Assembly: GCA_046497275.1 (NCBI GenBank)
Contig: JAWOFX010000022.1
Span: 1 to 25,481, forward strand
Reading direction: 5' to 3'
DNA length: 25,481 nt
Source of the DNA: Promethearchaeia archaeon
Lineage (GTDB): Archaea > Asgardarchaeota > Lokiarchaeia > Sigyniarchaeales > SOKP01
Part shown: one piece after another, positions 4,210 to 12,262 of the stretch
How positions within the stretch are numbered: the stretch's first letter is position 1
How the letters are laid out: every line of letters starts with the position of its first letter
The notes under the pieces: generated by a model
The model's input: only the letters and a program-made list of their open reading frames with translations
Told to the model about the DNA's origin: nothing
Database searches by the model: none
Translations under genes and position numbers: made by a program

Positions 4210-5487
4210 TTATTCTTTTAATCCATCAAAATAATATGGTGTAAGAATTGGAAAAAATTCTCGATTCAAATCCTTGAAAACTTCCTCAGGTATTAAAGAC
4301 CCATCTTTTGGCGGCTCTTTATAAAGATTCTTTAATTGTCTCACATATTCTCTCATTTCAAGCTGCAAGAAATATGTCCCTTTCTGAGCGATTATTACTA
4401 AATAATACGGGCTGAGATATTCCACGATTATAGCTCTATCTCCAAATCTTAAAGAATCTATCCCGGCTTTTGATTTGGCAACTTCTTCAGAAACATTTGA
4501 GAAAGCTATAGTTAAGCCACCTATTAGCTGAGAACTAGCTCCACTTTCTCCAAAATCTGCAAATTCTTCAGAAAGAGGTTTATAGTAGTGTGTGATGCCA
4601 GCTTCATCAACTAAACTTACTACTTGCACATTGGGAGGTACTAATCCAATCAATTCAGGATTTATAAAATGGGGTAAACTTATCAATAGTAACGCTAACA
4701 CAAAAACGGGAGTATTATAGGTAGAAAATTCAATTCCAGCAACTTCCAGAATACCTTCTAAAAATTCAAAAATCACATTTATGAATAAAAGAACTATTCC
4801 AGCAAACTGCATACCACCTAAAATTCTTGCTCGACGGCTATGAGCGAAAAAAGCTTTTGACATCCTTATCCCTATCAAAAATACAGAAAAAAAGACAATA
4901 ATTGCTCCAATTTGTACTAATGTTCTCAATAAGATTTGAAATAAAGTATTTGTTCCGTAATCCAACGTAAGTAATGAATACAAATTCTTTAAACAATAAG
5001 GAATTAAGCAGAAAGTTATCAAAATACTCAACCAAGAACGTGGACTATCTCTATCATTGAGTTCAAAATGAAAAAACAAAAAATAAATAGAAAGTGTAGA
5101 AGTTAAAAGTTGGATCTCAAATAGCCATGTTTGAGGGACAGTTCCAGCAGGATTCCAGTTTAACCAACCAAAAAAATATGAGGTAGCGGATGTAAACAGA
5201 CCAATTACCATAAATATAAGTGAAGTTAATCCAAATTTTACAGCACGATAAATTATCAATAAACCAAAAAGGAACATCATAATTGCTAGTGAGAAAAAAT
5301 ATGGAGAGAAAGAACCAATTTGAGCATACACAATATATTTTCTAAACCAAGATTCTATTATAAAACTTGTTAGAATTAAATAGATGAGAGCAAATATCGC
5401 AACTATTCCTATAATAATTATAATATAATTTTTGACATCCTTTATATTAATGATTTTATTTCTTAAAGACAAATTTTTTTTTCCCAT
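4210..5487 (-). CDS. Multi-pass (~8 TM) membrane protein with C-terminal longin-like domain
   Basis: About 8 hydrophobic helices in aa 21-276. Residues ~286-412 fit the longin beta-beta-alpha-beta-beta-beta-alpha-alpha pattern (VQVVSLVDEAGITHYY / QLIGGLTIAF / IDSLRFGDRAIIVEY / YLVIIA / LQLEMREYVRQLKNLY). Confidence 0.7.
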   Translation of the reverse strand: MGKKNLSLRNKIINIKDVKNYIIIIIGIVAIFALIYLILTSFIIESWFRKYIVYAQIGSFSPYFFSLAIMMFLFGLLIIYRAVKFGLTSLIFMVIGLFTSATSYFFGWLNWNPAGTVPQTWLFEIQLLTSTLSIYFLFFHFELNDRDSPRSWLSILITFCLIPYCLKNLYSLLTLDYGTNTLFQILLRTLVQIGAIIVFFSVFLIGIRMSKAFFAHSRRARILGGMQFAGIVLLFINVIFEFLEGILEVAGIEFSTYNTPVFVLALLLISLPHFINPELIGLVPPNVQVVSLVDEAGITHYYKPLSEEFADFGESGASSQLIGGLTIAFSNVSEEVAKSKAGIDSLRFGDRAIIVEYLSPYYLVIIAQKGTYFLQLEMREYVRQLKNLYKEPPKDGSLIPEEVFKDLNREFFPILTPYYFDGLKE

Positions 5488-6258: not shown

Positions 6259-6819
6259 TCACCCAGCTCTTTCAAACGCCCATTTTGCCTTATCATCTAA
6301 GCCCAATGCTTTATAAGCTCTGCCTAAGTATAAAAATGCATCTGGAAAATCAAAGCATTCCTTGACTAGTTTGAAAAGGTGATTAATTGCCATGTCATAT
6401 CTCCCCCTTAGATAATTTATTTTTCCTCTTAAAAACATAATTTCATACTTTTTATTTTTATAATCTTTAAATTCATCAAGGACCTCAAGAGCTTTCTTAA
6501 ATTCTTTCTGTTTAACAAAATCATGTACTAAATCTAATCCTTTCAAAAAAATCATTTTCTCTCCTATTTGATGAATTTTGTTCACATTTTCGATTTCTAA
6601 TTGATTTTTGAGTTCTTCCTCCTTTTCTTTTTCTTTCTCTCTTATGTATTCTTGAAATCTATTTATTATATTCTCATTATATTTAGTATTACACAAAGGA
6701 CAATTGAAAGAATGCGTTAACCATTCTCTTAGGCAAGATATATGAACAGCATGACCATTTGGGCACTCTTCATATGAATCTGAAATTTGCATATGGCAAA
6801 TTATACATGTGGGTGGCAT
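6259..6819 (-). CDS. RING-H2 zinc finger - charged coil - TPR protein (putative E3 ligase/adaptor)
   Basis: C5-x2-C8...C19-x3-H23-x2-H26-x2-C29-x3-W33...C40-P-L-C43. An E/K-rich helix follows (aa ~55-80), then TPR-type repeats (MFLRGKINYLRGRYDMAINHL; AFLYLGRAYKALGLDDKAKWAF). Confidence 0.85.
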   Translation of the reverse strand: MPPTCIICHMQISDSYEECPNGHAVHISCLREWLTHSFNCPLCNTKYNENIINRFQEYIREKEKEKEEELKNQLEIENVNKIHQIGEKMIFLKGLDLVHDFVKQKEFKKALEVLDEFKDYKNKKYEIMFLRGKINYLRGRYDMAINHLFKLVKECFDFPDAFLYLGRAYKALGLDDKAKWAFERAG

Positions 6820-6977
6820 TTGAATATTTTCGTTTCTTTTTAAGAATTATTTTGCAAAATATGAATCTTTAGATAATTATAAAAATCAAGTTTTTTTAAA
6901 TTGTCCTTTTCCAAAAAAGGTTAAAATGATATATTATTATAGTTGTTAAATAAATATCAATATGTAAGGGATATCTA

Positions 6978-8540
6978 TTGTCGATAAATCTAACAGAATT
7001 ATTTGAAACTTTATGCAATAATTTTTTTGAAGTGAATCAAGATATTGATGCGATTATTGTTTCTGATGTTGATGGATTAATTATTTTTGGTGAGAAAAGA
7101 GAGGAAGTGGACCTTGAGATAGTATCTGTTCTCACTTCAATAGTTCATCCCGTTTTAGAGAGAATCCGAGATGAATTTGCATTTCAACAATTTGGGACTG
7201 CCTCCTTTGACACAGAAATACATAGATTGCTTTTTATTTCAATCGATGAAAAAATTACATTAAGTCTTGTGATTGATACCATGGCATCTATAGATAAAGT
7301 ATCTCCTTACGCATATTTTTTAGCAGAAAAAACCGCAAGGATCTTAAATGCTGAAGAAGATGATGTTATCCAGCTAGATATTCCAAACTTCGAATATGAA
7401 GCGGAAAAAGCAAAAAGACTTAAAAATCAAATATATCAACTGCGACTTGATACGGGGAGAAAGTTCAGGTTTAAATTCATAATTATTGGGGATCATGAAG
7501 TAGGAAAAACTTCAATCGTGCGCCGATTTGTTGAGAATAAATTTACACATGATTATCGTGCTACAATCGGCTTGAATATCTTGACACATTCTATAAACTT
7601 CCTTGATAATGATGTAAAATTAAGCATCTGGGATATTGGAGCTCAAAAATATTTCCGTCGTTTTAGAAATACTTATTATATCGGAGCACAAGCGACTTTC
7701 ATTGTTTTTGATTTAACTGTAAGACAATCTTTTGAGAATGTAATAACTTGGTTTCAAGAAATTGATAAGTTTCTAAACACAGAAGACTTGCCTATAATAA
7801 TTGTTGGAAATAAATCAGATTTAAAAGATGAAAGAGTTGTGGATTATCAAGAAGGGGTAGAATTGACAAATTCATTATCTGAGAGAGGAATAAAAAATAT
7901 CTCTTATATCGAAACAAGTGCACTCACAGGTGAAAATATAAATGATGCATTCAGATTGATATCCTATCATTATATTATGAAAAGTAAAGAAATCGAGGAA
8001 AATAAACTTAAAGCAGATGTTTTAGAAGAAATTAATAGTATAATCCCCTTAAAAGAGAATTTAACTATTACATTTTTAACTGAGAGCAAATATTGGAGCC
8101 CAGCTCTCCAAATTTTAAATTCAATATTATCTGAATTTGAATTAGCTAATAAAATTGAAGAAAAAAATAGGCATATTTATGAATATAAAAATGGAATATG
8201 TCTACGTAATTATTCATATGATTCAATGGAGATTAAAAATTCTGATGGAATTTTTTGTATTTTCGATGCAAGGAATCGGGACTCCATTAAGCCTGAATGG
8301 AGAGATATTATTATTGAAATCATTAAAACGATAGATGAGAAAAAAGTTGTTTTAGTCGGAATTAGGGTTTCTGAAAATGTTGATTGGTCCAAAATTATGG
8401 AGGAATTTAATATAAATGAATATTTAGAGAAGAAAATGATATCCTTTTTATTTTTTAGAATTGGGGAGGAATATCGATTGGAAATTTTTGATCAATTAAA
8501 AGTAATGTTTAGTACGATTGAATCTGTTTTTCTTATATAG
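6978..8540 (+). CDS. Roadblock/LAMTOR-like domain + Rab-like small GTPase + degenerate GTPase-like C-terminal domain
   Basis: aa 1-125 are Roadblock-like (IDAIIVSDVDGLII). aa ~163-332 carry G1 GDHEVGKT, G2 YRATIG, G3 WDIGAQ, G4 NKSD and G5 ETSAL. aa ~360-520 echo the GTPase strands without the G motifs. TTG start. Confidence 0.88.
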   Translation: MSINLTELFETLCNNFFEVNQDIDAIIVSDVDGLIIFGEKREEVDLEIVSVLTSIVHPVLERIRDEFAFQQFGTASFDTEIHRLLFISIDEKITLSLVIDTMASIDKVSPYAYFLAEKTARILNAEEDDVIQLDIPNFEYEAEKAKRLKNQIYQLRLDTGRKFRFKFIIIGDHEVGKTSIVRRFVENKFTHDYRATIGLNILTHSINFLDNDVKLSIWDIGAQKYFRRFRNTYYIGAQATFIVFDLTVRQSFENVITWFQEIDKFLNTEDLPIIIVGNKSDLKDERVVDYQEGVELTNSLSERGIKNISYIETSALTGENINDAFRLISYHYIMKSKEIEENKLKADVLEEINSIIPLKENLTITFLTESKYWSPALQILNSILSEFELANKIEEKNRHIYEYKNGICLRNYSYDSMEIKNSDGIFCIFDARNRDSIKPEWRDIIIEIIKTIDEKKVVLVGIRVSENVDWSKIMEEFNINEYLEKKMISFLFFRIGEEYRLEIFDQLKVMFSTIESVFLI

Positions 8541-9743: not shown

Positions 9744-10685
9744 ATGTCCATTCCTAATATAAAATCTAAATTTCTAGGAGGTATGATCGGAAGTGCACTG
9801 GGCGATTGCATAGGAGAATTAGCATTCAGATTCGGAAATAAAAAAGATCTGGTTAAAGAAATTAACAATAGGAACGTAATACAATATACTGATGATACTG
9901 CAATGGCTTTAGGAATTGCAGAAACAATAGTCTCAACCAATGGCGATTGGAACTCTCGAGATCTGGGAAAAACCTTTCATAAAAATTTTAATAAAGAACC
10001 ATATCGTGGGTATGGTCGTGGACCTCCTCAAATATTTCGGACTGTAGAAATGACGAACGAATCATATTATAAAGTCGCAAGCGAATTATTCGGGGGAAAA
10101 GGATCATTTGGTAATGGTGCTTCTATGCGAATTGCACCTTTAGGAATATTTTACTATGATCATCCAGAAATTTATAAAATCGCTAAAAAATCTGCAATTG
10201 TAACACATATACATCCATTAGGGATTGATGGCGCCGCCCTTCTTGCTAAATTAAATAGCATGTTAATTACGAGAAAACCCAAAGAATTAATTATTCAAGA
10301 AAAGCTGAATATTATAAATGATTTAATTAAGTTTTCAAAAACTAGTGAATATAGACAAAAATTAGAAAAAATTAAGGATTTAATCATTAACAATGAGAGA
10401 TTGATTACAGCAGAGCGAATCCTTGGTTCAGATGTTTTAGCTTATACTTCAGTTCCGTTTAGTATTTTTGCATTTTTAAATAATCCCGAATCATATAGAA
10501 CGAATTTATTAGAAACTGTTTTAATATCAAAAGATAGAGATACAGTAGGAGCTATGGTTGGGGGCTTATTAGGATCCTACTTAGGTATAGAGTTCATTCC
10601 GGATGAATGGATTCAAAGACTTGAAAATAAGGATTATATTGAACAGTTAGGACTGAAGCTTTTTGATTTAAAAAATTTAAAATAG
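9744..10685 (+). CDS. ADP-ribosylglycohydrolase family protein (DraG/ARH3-like)
   Basis: GSALGD, YTDDTAM (intact metal-binding TDD), SFGNGASMRIAP, TH.HP and DRDTVGAMVG. Confidence 0.92.
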   Translation: MSIPNIKSKFLGGMIGSALGDCIGELAFRFGNKKDLVKEINNRNVIQYTDDTAMALGIAETIVSTNGDWNSRDLGKTFHKNFNKEPYRGYGRGPPQIFRTVEMTNESYYKVASELFGGKGSFGNGASMRIAPLGIFYYDHPEIYKIAKKSAIVTHIHPLGIDGAALLAKLNSMLITRKPKELIIQEKLNIINDLIKFSKTSEYRQKLEKIKDLIINNERLITAERILGSDVLAYTSVPFSIFAFLNNPESYRTNLLETVLISKDRDTVGAMVGGLLGSYLGIEFIPDEWIQRLENKDYIEQLGLKLFDLKNLK

Positions 10686-10723
10686 TTTTAGGTTTAATAG
10701 GAACAATCTTTTAATATATCACT

Positions 10724-12262
10724 ATGAAAGAAATTATTTTCTACGGTGATGATGCTTTTTTTTATGAATTTCCTGAAGATATTGATATTTACTACGCTAA
10801 ACCTCCTATCACTCCTATTAAAAATCAGGAATTGGCAATCGAACATGCAATTAAAAACCCTATAAACTCACCAAAATTACAAGATTTGATTAATTCTAAT
10901 TCTACTATTGCAATCTGTTTTGACGATATAAGCGTCCCCTTACCTCCTATGAAAAATGAAATTAGAAAAATAGCCGCTGAGATTGTTTTAAAAATTCTTA
11001 AAGAGATTGGTGTTAAAGATGAAAATTTATATTTTTTATGTGCTACTGGTTTACACAGAAAATGTAAACCTAAAGAATTAAAATATCTTTTAGGTAAAAA
11101 ATTATACCGTAAGTATAAAGATCGCATATTTAATCATGATGCAGAAGATAAAATTAACTTAAAAACTCTTGGAAAAACTCAAGAGGGAGATAAAATACAG
11201 ATTAATAAATTAGCAACTGATGCAGATCTTATTATATATCTGAATATTAGTTTTGTACCATTAAATGGTGGTTGGAAGTCTATAATAGTTGGATTAGGAA
11301 GTTATAATACCATCATTCCTCATCACTCACCTCAAACGCTTAGGCAGGGATCATATATGGATCCGGAATCATCAGAATTACACCATATTATCTGGGAGAT
11401 GGGAGATCTTATTAAAGATAAGCTTAAAGTGTTTACAATTGAAATGGTTATCAATAATAATTTCTATAGTGGGATATATAAAAGAATATATAAACCACTT
11501 AAATCTACTCAGAGAAAACCATCTTTATGGAGGGGATTAGCGCTTACAACGTTAAAAGCCTTACCAAAATTTATAAAAGCATATGTTAGGAAAAATCTTA
11601 AAGCGAATTACGAACTGATAGATGTTTTTGCTGGAGATATTGAGGAAACTCATAAAAAATCATTAGAACTTATGAATACTCAATTAAATGTCGAAATTTC
11701 AAAAAAATATGATATTATCATATATGGAGTCCCTAATCTTACTCCCTATAATGTAGGTTCTGAAATGAATCCATTACTGCTACATAATCTTGTTTCTGGA
11801 TATCTTTTTAATATGCATCAAGGAGAATCCCCTTTAAAAAACAACGGCACTTTAATTATTTCAAATCCAGCGTATGAAAAATTTGATTCTGAACAACATG
11901 TTTCTTATAAAGATTTTTATTATGATATTATGACTAAAAATCATGATATTTTTAATTTAAAAGAAGTTGAATATGAATATTTGGATAATAAGAAATATAT
12001 TGAAAAATACAGAAATCAATATGCCTACCATCCAGTTCATGCTCCCATTGTATATTATTGGGGTGTAAGGGGACTCTTGAAAATCGAAAATATTATAGTT
12101 GCTGGGGCTAAAAATAAAGATGTGTTAAAAGTCTTAGGATATGAATATGCAGAAAATTTAGATGAAGCTATTGAAAATGCCAAAAGGCGGTATCCTAATA
12201 ACTGTTCAATTGCATATTTCTGCATTCCGCCACTATTCATAGCAAAATTAATTAAAAATTGA
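10724..12262 (+). CDS. LarA-like (DUF2088, nickel-pincer nucleotide superfamily) racemase/epimerase, long divergent subtype
   Basis: P(I)NSPKL, FDDISVP, ATGLHR, NHDA, GGWKS, PHHS, plus a C-terminal LarA-like domain. Confidence 0.82.
   Translation: MKEIIFYGDDAFFYEFPEDIDIYYAKPPITPIKNQELAIEHAIKNPINSPKLQDLINSNSTIAICFDDISVPLPPMKNEIRKIAAEIVLKILKEIGVKDENLYFLCATGLHRKCKPKELKYLLGKKLYRKYKDRIFNHDAEDKINLKTLGKTQEGDKIQINKLATDADLIIYLNISFVPLNGGWKSIIVGLGSYNTIIPHHSPQTLRQGSYMDPESSELHHIIWEMGDLIKDKLKVFTIEMVINNNFYSGIYKRIYKPLKSTQRKPSLWRGLALTTLKALPKFIKAYVRKNLKANYELIDVFAGDIEETHKKSLELMNTQLNVEISKKYDIIIYGVPNLTPYNVGSEMNPLLLHNLVSGYLFNMHQGESPLKNNGTLIISNPAYEKFDSEQHVSYKDFYYDIMTKNHDIFNLKEVEYEYLDNKKYIEKYRNQYAYHPVHAPIVYYWGVRGLLKIENIIVAGAKNKDVLKVLGYEYAENLDEAIENAKRRYPNNCSIAYFCIPPLFIAKLIKN

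Follow-up and report, generated by a model that had tools for sequence, protein, structure and literature searches.

A conserved Roadblock/Rab-like GTPase protein with a predicted pseudo-GTPase domain in one lineage of Asgard archaea

Can a small GTPase carry, in one polypeptide chain, both a Roadblock domain and a second G-like domain that has lost the motifs for nucleotide binding? This question is raised by an open reading frame (ORF) in a stretch of 25,481 nucleotides (contig JAWOFX010000022.1 of assembly GCA_046497275.1, positions 1 to 25,481; hereafter the window; G+C content about 30%) from a Promethearchaeia archaeon of the Sigyniarchaeales. The ORF (6978..8540, + strand, stop codon included) has a TTG start and encodes 520 amino acids (aa). 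A first-pass annotation, made from the letters alone, had described its product as a Roadblock domain followed by an active Rab-like GTPase and a pseudo-GTPase, and had likened the whole to a one-chain Rag-like switch. We found that the ORF, located exactly where it had been placed, is real and conserved and has three domains; Roadblock, Rab-like and pseudo-GTPase domain are each supported by evidence at the domain level, which makes the three-part anatomy very probable. The best explanation of the whole, which we consider moderately probable, is that of a conserved Roadblock/Rab-like/pseudo-GTPase protein that would work as a self-contained small-GTPase module.

An entry identical over all 520 aa is on record, and hundreds of full-length relatives (515-530 aa) show 58-86% identity over 95-100% of the length. 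The N-termini of these homologues begin with MS-INLT, in agreement with that of the ORF, and the TTG start at 6978 is thereby confirmed. When the gene was compared with relatives in four pairs, the proportion of nonsynonymous differences (pN) was 0.10-0.21 against a saturated proportion of synonymous differences (pS) of about 0.7-0.77 for the whole gene, and 0.13-0.25, likewise against a saturated pS, for the C-terminal domain, which indicates purifying selection on all parts of the gene, the last domain included. The synonymous rate dS is saturated in every available pair and dN/dS (about 0.03-0.17) is thus an upper bound only. The mean column identity was 52% for the pseudo-GTPase domain, 63% for the G domain and 60% for the Roadblock domain. 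All strings quoted in the first-pass annotation are present in the translation, both in the G domain (KLSIW at aa 214-218, YYIGA at aa 233-237 and IVFDLT at aa 242-247) and in the C-terminal domain (LTITFLTESKYWSPALQIL at aa 362-380, NSDGIFCIFDARNR at aa 421-434 and KKVVLVGIR at aa 455-463). Short contigs from RNA libraries (metatranscriptomes of two salt-lake studies) match parts of the gene and its neighbours with at least 99% identity, which fits transcription of the gene but is no proof of it; the parts of the gene that are left uncovered by these contigs carry no meaning. Three of the contigs, from three runs (X4, X7 and X8), start at 6948-6968, that is 10-30 nt upstream of the TTG start, a weak hint that a transcript with a short leader may begin there.

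The central point is the nature of the third domain (aa 359-520; 8052..8537, + strand), predicted to be a G-domain fold without P-loop, DxxG and NKxD. Pfam and NCBIfam gave no match in aa 345-520 (Pfam even at E<=1), and a phmmer search of the domain against 1.84 billion representatives returned 42 proteins, all of them members of its own family or fragments, and no recognisable GTPase. A domain profile of 44 sequences, compared with 177,635 PDB sequences, did find Rho6/Rnd1 (E=1.4e-4) and, more weakly, RhoE; eight of the nine PDB matches with E<10 were Rho-type GTPases, and the matching region was always beta4-alpha3-beta5. The alignment of the domain to the protein's own G domain by hhalign was weak (E 0.004, probability 8%) and consisted of one segment of 42 columns in the register that the first-pass annotation had used; with a broader alignment of small GTPases from the same genome the same segment was obtained (E 0.0014, probability 17%). 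Judged from these profiles, the parallel between the C-terminal domain and the G domain exceeds chance.

The fold is much clearer in the predicted structure. An AlphaFold2 (AF2) model of aa 338-520, built with the family alignment, had a predicted local distance difference test (pLDDT) of 94.5 and a predicted template modelling score (pTM) of 0.90, and its elements follow each other as helix, beta1, alpha1, three strands (aa 389-413), beta4, alpha3, beta5, alpha4, beta6 and alpha5. In a Foldseek search with this model the top 50 PDB entries were all GTPases (probability 1.00, E down to 7e-6), except for rhodopsin-Arf1 chimeras, in which the Arf part was matched. VIA-align, which is independent of Foldseek, ranked HodArfR1-GDP first (Z 14.0, 164 residues, root mean square deviation 3.4 A), followed by Arf, Sar and Arl proteins at Z 12.3-12.5, so that the top five were all Arf/Sar/Arl (Z 12.3-14.0); below them came the Loki Rag-like GTPases at Z 11.1 and MglA-GDP at Z 10.8, and the Rabs did not exceed Z 9.8. 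A small-GTPase fold for aa 360-520, the point on which the earlier interpretation was most exposed, is thus what the model shows. The likeness to Arf-GDP is one of fold only and includes a docked N-terminal helix; the Arf signature (Pfam Arf, WDVGGQ and NKQD) is absent from the third domain. The earlier idea that the C-terminal domain parallels the protein's own G domain holds for the register of the alignment, but the best folds are Arf/Sar/Arl, with Loki Rag-like GTPases before Rab, and an internal duplication is therefore neither shown nor refuted. In the ESM Atlas we also came across a cluster of stand-alone archaeal proteins of 196 aa (1136 members, Promethearchaeota, no Pfam match) with template modelling (TM) scores of 0.62/0.59 to the model of the pseudo-GTPase domain; they may represent further G-like or pseudo-G proteins that have so far escaped annotation.

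We refer to the GTDB family of the window as f1 and to its sister families as f2, f3 and f4. In all 24 sequences compared, from three GTDB families, the motifs GxxxxGK[ST], DxxG and NKxD were absent from the third domain, as the first-pass annotation had concluded for G1, G3 and G4 of this protein, in which GIRVS stands at the place of G4. The loss is common to members of f1, f3 and f4 and must for that reason be old. Conserved instead are [FW]-[SN]-P (W373, P375) at the place of the P-loop, F-D-A-R (D430, R432) at the end of beta4, G-I-R (G461, R463) at the place of NKxD, and W470-S471. In the sequence, the residues that are invariant in the domain (W373, P375, Q378, D430, R432, G461, R463, W470, S471 and G496) are placed where G1, G4, G5 and the last part of beta4 would be. 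With its fold taken from the prediction, 'pseudo-GTPase' is the right description for this domain.

The central domain (aa 161-337; 7458..7988, + strand) is a Rab-like small GTPase domain. Pfam Ras matched aa 166-328 with E=1.1e-46 (158.8 bits against a cut-off of 21.6 bits) and TIGR00231 with E=1e-22; Pfam Arf gave E 5e-18, and Gtr1_RagA, with 18.3 bits, remained below its cut-off of 22 bits. The closest PDB sequences were Rab1a (2rhd, E=4.5e-33) and a Thorarchaeota Rab (7ezb, E=6.5e-33). The P-loop GDHEVGKT (G1, aa 171-178; 7488..7511, + strand), in which G171, G176, K177 and T178 are invariant, is followed by Thr196 in switch I (G2), the G4 motif NKSD (aa 278-281; 7809..7820, + strand; identified by motif comparison) and the G5 motif ETSAL (aa 312-316, with SAL at aa 314-316), and G1, Thr196, NKSD, G5 and Gln223 are invariant or nearly so in the family. 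Nucleotide binding and hydrolysis by this domain are putative, as read from the motifs.

The one atypical motif is G3, which reads D-I-G-A-Q (aa 219-223; 7632..7646, + strand), with Ala222 in place of the canonical glycine and the catalytic Gln223 retained. D-x-G-G-Q is the G3 style of Arf, Rag and G-alpha. Across the 24 sequences of the clade the motif was fixed as D[IVL]GAQ in f1, it was DFGGQ in the sister family f4, and Ser was found at this position in two distant members; the comparison of f4 with f1 identifies the change as a Gly-to-Ala substitution and not as a shifted motif. We take the position of Ala222 to be that of Gly60 in Ras. H-Ras with the substitution G60A is shifted towards the inactive 'state 1', and its intrinsic GTPase activity is drastically impaired (PMC4867591). 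With Ala at the G3 glycine, this impairment makes the word 'active', which the first-pass annotation had used for the G domain, questionable.

The N-terminal domain (aa 1-125; 6978..7352, + strand) has, according to the models, the Roadblock/LC7 fold. In this protein itself Pfam Robl_LC7 matched only with E=0.13 (12.5 bits against a cut-off of 23 bits; profile positions 3-87 of 91), and the Roadblock assignment that had been made before draws its support from the relatives, 21 of 35 of which matched Robl_LC7 at E<=1 (best E 3.5e-4) and six of 35 the Roadblock-type MAPKK1_Int, and from the Atlas model of aa 1-125, which reached TM 0.80/0.82 (125 residues) against a Roadblock/LAMTOR2 cluster with a PF03259 share of 100%, both sides being predicted models. 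A profile of the domain found the Roadblock protein 7yh1_D in the PDB with E=0.5. The AF2 elements (H5-19, E23-30, E35-40, H46-67, E74-78, E82-88, E93-100 and H105-123) give the order alpha-beta-beta-alpha-beta-beta-beta-alpha. Between the Roadblock and the G domain lies a linker (aa 126-160; 7353..7457, + strand) that is conserved in the family alignment, with the invariant residues P136, F138, Q151, Y153, L157, D158 and G160 and a single helix at aa 145-157, predicted by AF2 with low pLDDT.

The G domain and the third domain are connected by a long continuous helix (aa 321-358; 7938..8051, + strand), predicted as H321-355 in the AF2 model of the protein and as H2-21 in the domain model. It is an extension of alpha5 of the G domain, and its distal part packs on the third domain at the site that the N-terminal helix occupies in Arf-GDP; the VIA alignment pairs residues 10-183 of the model with residues 2-186 of HodArfR1-GDP. 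The protein ends with ESVFLI and has no Cys nearby, and the same was seen in 23 relatives: Cys is absent from the last 13 residues in all 24 sequences, and the G domain moreover precedes another domain. The absence of a prenylation motif, noticed before, thus extends to these relatives, and as no lipidation signal is present the protein could be brought to a membrane only by a partner.

Taken together, these features lead us to a mechanism that we put forward tentatively, as far less probable than the anatomy. The G domain would bind guanine nucleotide and would cycle slowly or unconventionally owing to the Gly-to-Ala change in G3. For its part, the Roadblock domain would act as a dimer platform and regulatory surface, a task that for MglA and the Rag GTPases falls to Roadblock proteins in trans and that MglB and the Rag C-terminal domains exemplify (PMC10933270). 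Fusions of Roadblock with a GTPase, and dimers of Roadblock proteins, have been documented for Asgard archaea in the same study. With a single copy in this genome the protein would form a homodimer, and relatives that carry tandem paralogues would probably form heterodimers. Tied rigidly to alpha5 of the G domain by the long helix, the pseudo-GTPase domain would offer a nucleotide-independent docking or relay surface, a role that we propose because the conserved residues of the domain are found at the place where a nucleotide pocket would be built by the C-terminal ends of beta1, beta4, beta5 and beta6.

Several observations weigh against this interpretation. At the level of sequence the third domain shows little homology to GTPases (hhalign probability 8-17%), and its profile matched none of the roughly 29 other small-GTPase matches of the genome at E<=1; the assignment of the fold therefore rests on the predicted model, and in the VIA list that was obtained with this model Rossmann-like folds of the CheY-like/receiver, TIR and B12-binding type were present at Z 9-10.5. 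The full-length AF2 model had a pTM of 0.53, and in switch I and the interswitch its pLDDT dropped under 50, so the arrangement of the domains is not reliable and was set aside. A complex prediction of aa 1-337 with aa 356-520 (ipSAE 0.01, mark 0.32) was uninformative either way. The RNA-library contigs, which cover parts of the gene together with its neighbours, may be carried-over DNA.

The main rival explanation is that the protein is a constitutive scaffold and not a switch: Ala in G3 would lock the G domain in a GTP-bound, hydrolysis-poor or 'state 1' form, like Rnd or Ras G60A, and both G-like domains would serve as binding surfaces. The fixation of D-x-G-A-Q in f1, with Ser there in the two distant members, would be in line with this, as would the uncertainty of AF2 in switch I and interswitch and the behaviour of H-Ras G60A, which is mostly in state 1 with its GTPase drastically impaired (PMC4867591). 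A pure scaffold would have no need for Gln223, Thr196, the P-loop and NKSD, though, which are invariant; the sister family f4 retains DFGGQ, and the effect in Ras may not transfer to this protein. We consider a static scaffold with a locked G domain doubtful.

The three-domain protein has a narrow distribution. The third domain was present in 67 of 68 f1 genomes, and divergent forms were found in two sister families that belong to the same taxonomic order, f3 (1/1) and f4 (4/4); a search of 11 genomes of the sister family f2, three of which are single-contig, found none. Among about 225 other genomes of the phylum only two had it, one with a marginal match (E 2.3e-4) and one on a 4.3-kb contig. 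The 4330-bp contig L044 (G314:C309) carries the RING gene that is described below and a tandem pair that clusters tightly with the pair of locus L026, and contamination of its bin is 9%; for these two reasons it is probably a mis-binned contig. An Asgard-wide family, as suggested by the NCBI labels of close homologues (Thor-, Hod-, Odin- and Hermodarchaeota), is contradicted by this genome survey.

The copy number varied from one to four, with a tandem pair as the commonest arrangement. The genome of the window, which is 98.9% complete, has exactly one copy, and the pseudo-GTPase profile found no second one there at E<=1. In the tree the protein belongs to a well-supported single-copy clade, apart from two clades of tandem paralogues, with the branching order unresolved. 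The same genome also encodes Roadblock plus Rab-like GTPases without the third domain, namely a protein of 337 aa (L002 137-1150, + strand, on C32; 42% identity) and one of about 327 aa (C74:10977-11918; 35% identity), and the closer of these has a canonical G3 (DLAGQ). Such two-domain paralogues fit descent from a Roadblock-GTPase ('RG') ancestor. Some members of the family have a long tetratricopeptide repeat (TPR) array fused after the pseudo-GTPase domain, which results in a four-part architecture (P0127, 894 aa); TPR-fused open frames of 837 and 897 aa were found in genome G232 at C3:254769-255305 and C3:262632-263168.

We also looked at the genes next to the ORF. The divergent neighbour, 158 bp upstream (6259..6819, - strand, 186 aa), encodes a RING-H2 domain (zf-RING_2, E=1e-6) with TPR, and one of the RNA-library contigs (6709-6870) covers its start and part of the intergenic region. 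The RING-H2/TPR gene adjoins in 16 of 18 f1 loci (45-66% identity); the other f1 neighbours are ThiN (14/18), an isocitrate/isopropylmalate dehydrogenase (8/18) and a 425-aa membrane protein (1/18), and none of these four was found at seven more distant loci. As the housekeeping gene ThiN is kept nearly as often, the RING adjacency is a possible link that is indistinguishable from synteny. The 425-aa protein (4210-5487, - strand) is a multi-pass membrane protein with a soluble C-terminal domain, has no Pfam match, and adjoins the locus in one genome of the same genus only (79% identity). A 'module' of membrane protein, RING protein and GTPase was considered and rejected, the first being a neighbour in 1/18 loci and the second in 16/18, barely above the unrelated ThiN. 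Further downstream, at 9744-12262 (+ strand), an ADP-ribosylglycohydrolase (E=1e-46) is followed after a gap of 38 nt by a LarA-like protein (Lar_N, E=3e-43), both of which are unrelated to the GTPase gene.

A second rival explanation follows from this neighbourhood, according to which the protein works with the RING-H2/TPR protein as regulator, substrate or adaptor of a ubiquitin-like ligase and the pseudo-GTPase domain is a TPR-binding surface. That the RING gene stays next to the GTPase gene in f1 in spite of its modest identity, and that P0127 and the frames in G232 have a TPR array fused directly after the pseudo-GTPase domain, would agree with such a partnership. Against this, with ThiN conserved in the same loci the adjacency may simply reflect synteny inside one family; none of the seven distant loci has the RING gene, and the fused TPRs resemble those of the neighbour only in the generic way of repeats (26% identity). 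We consider this explanation distinctly improbable.

Two further explanations concern the third domain itself. It could be a ligand sensor, in which a pocket of W373, P375, D430, R432 and R463 would bind a nucleotide or small molecule in a non-canonical way and would signal to the G domain via the long helix, and the clustering of conserved residues, including two invariant Arg and one invariant Asp, at former nucleotide-pocket positions would suit such a function; yet the P-loop Lys/Ser/Thr, a Mg2+ ligand motif and a guanine-specificity motif are all missing, and R463 and D430/R432 are lost in the most distant members, which makes a sensor very unlikely. That the domain is not derived from a GTPase at all and is a generic flavodoxin-like or Rossmann-like alpha/beta domain, as the TIR, receiver and B12-binding matches at Z 9-10.5, flavodoxin clusters at TM 0.49-0.62 and the low hhalign probabilities against GTPases might suggest, is scarcely credible given that the VIA top five and the Foldseek top 50 are GTPases (the rhodopsin-Arf1 chimeras through their Arf part) at Z 12.3-14.0 over 151-168 aligned residues, that three successive strands follow alpha1 as in Arf-GDP, which flavodoxin-like folds do not have, and that an independent sequence profile matches Rho6/Rnd1 in the right register.

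Small GTPases and Roadblock/longin regulators are central to the debate on the Asgard origins of eukaryotic membrane traffic and of Rag/mTOR-type signalling. With the family described here one Asgard lineage has built a multi-domain GTPase that contains a conserved, predicted pseudo-GTPase, a device that to our knowledge has been described so far only in eukaryotes. It has also fixed, in nature, a Gly-to-Ala change at the switch II glycine that is crippling in Ras. As the protein is confined to one family-level lineage, its relevance for eukaryogenesis is limited; being small, soluble-looking and highly conserved, it is tractable for the study of the role of a pseudo-GTPase beside a G domain and of Roadblock regulation in cis.

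The known proteins that come closest are the Roadblock-GTPase (RG) fusions of Asgard archaea (Tran et al. 2024, Commun Biol, PMC10933270; Liu et al. 2020/2021, bioRxiv 10.1101/2020.10.19.343400), which share the N-terminal Roadblock domain, the Rab-like GTPase, the lack of a prenylation signal and the Asgard host. The family described here differs from them in the additional conserved pseudo-GTPase domain of 160 aa and in the Ala at the G3 glycine. A description of the third domain or of the G3 change, or of any Asgard pseudoGTPase, was not found in the literature searched, which has most subscription journals outside it. The fusion of Roadblock and GTPase is thus already known in Asgard archaea, and the dead third domain and the G3 change are new as far as this literature goes.

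The Rag/Gtr GTPases with Ragulator and the proteins LokiRagO and LokiRagM (8yl2 and 9m28) resemble the present protein in that a G domain is covalently joined to a Roadblock domain and that there are two G-like domains per functional unit; the model of the pseudo-GTPase domain matched both LokiRagO and LokiRagM at Z 11.1. Unlike in Rag/Gtr, the Roadblock domain is N-terminal here (the order is reversed), the G domain is Rab-like (158.8 bits for Ras against 18.3 bits for Gtr1_RagA), and the second G-like unit, which lacks the canonical nucleotide-binding motifs, belongs to the same polypeptide. The ancestral G3 of the clade, D-x-G-G-Q, is presumably in Rag and Arf style. The protein is not a member of the Rag family, and the 'one-chain Rag-like switch' of the first-pass annotation can be kept as an analogy only. 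One could go further and see in it an archaeal, partly 'dead' counterpart of the Rag pair, in which Roadblock dimers would set a slow Rab-like G domain beside a nucleotide-free G-like domain, the asymmetric unit would be the signalling state, and tandem paralogues in sister genera would split the role and heterodimerise. We regard this as unlikely; if true, it would mean that pseudo-GTPase scaffolds and the logic of paired G domains arose in prokaryotes independently of eukaryotes.

MglA and MglB of Myxococcus also combine a Roadblock fold with a Ras-like small GTPase in a prokaryote, and MglA-GDP (5ymx) was matched by the third domain at Z 10.8, but these are separate proteins, of which the Roadblock dimer serves as a platform for GTPase activation and nucleotide exchange (GAP/GEF), whereas the present protein unites both in one chain together with a pseudo-GTPase domain. 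With the eukaryotic pseudoGTPases (pG1 and pG2 of p190RhoGAP, CENP-M, the dynein light intermediate chain (LIC) and Fbx4) it shares a predicted G-domain fold with lost G motifs, which serves those proteins as a scaffold; the GTPase-like domain of Fbx4 (3l82_B) was among the fold matches of the third domain (Z 9.2). In p190RhoGAP a nucleotide-binding G domain and pseudo-G domains are likewise joined in one chain. Unlike these proteins, to which no sequence relationship was detected, the domain described here is archaeal and lineage-specific, and its closest fold is the GDP form of Arf/Sar with a docked N-terminal helix.

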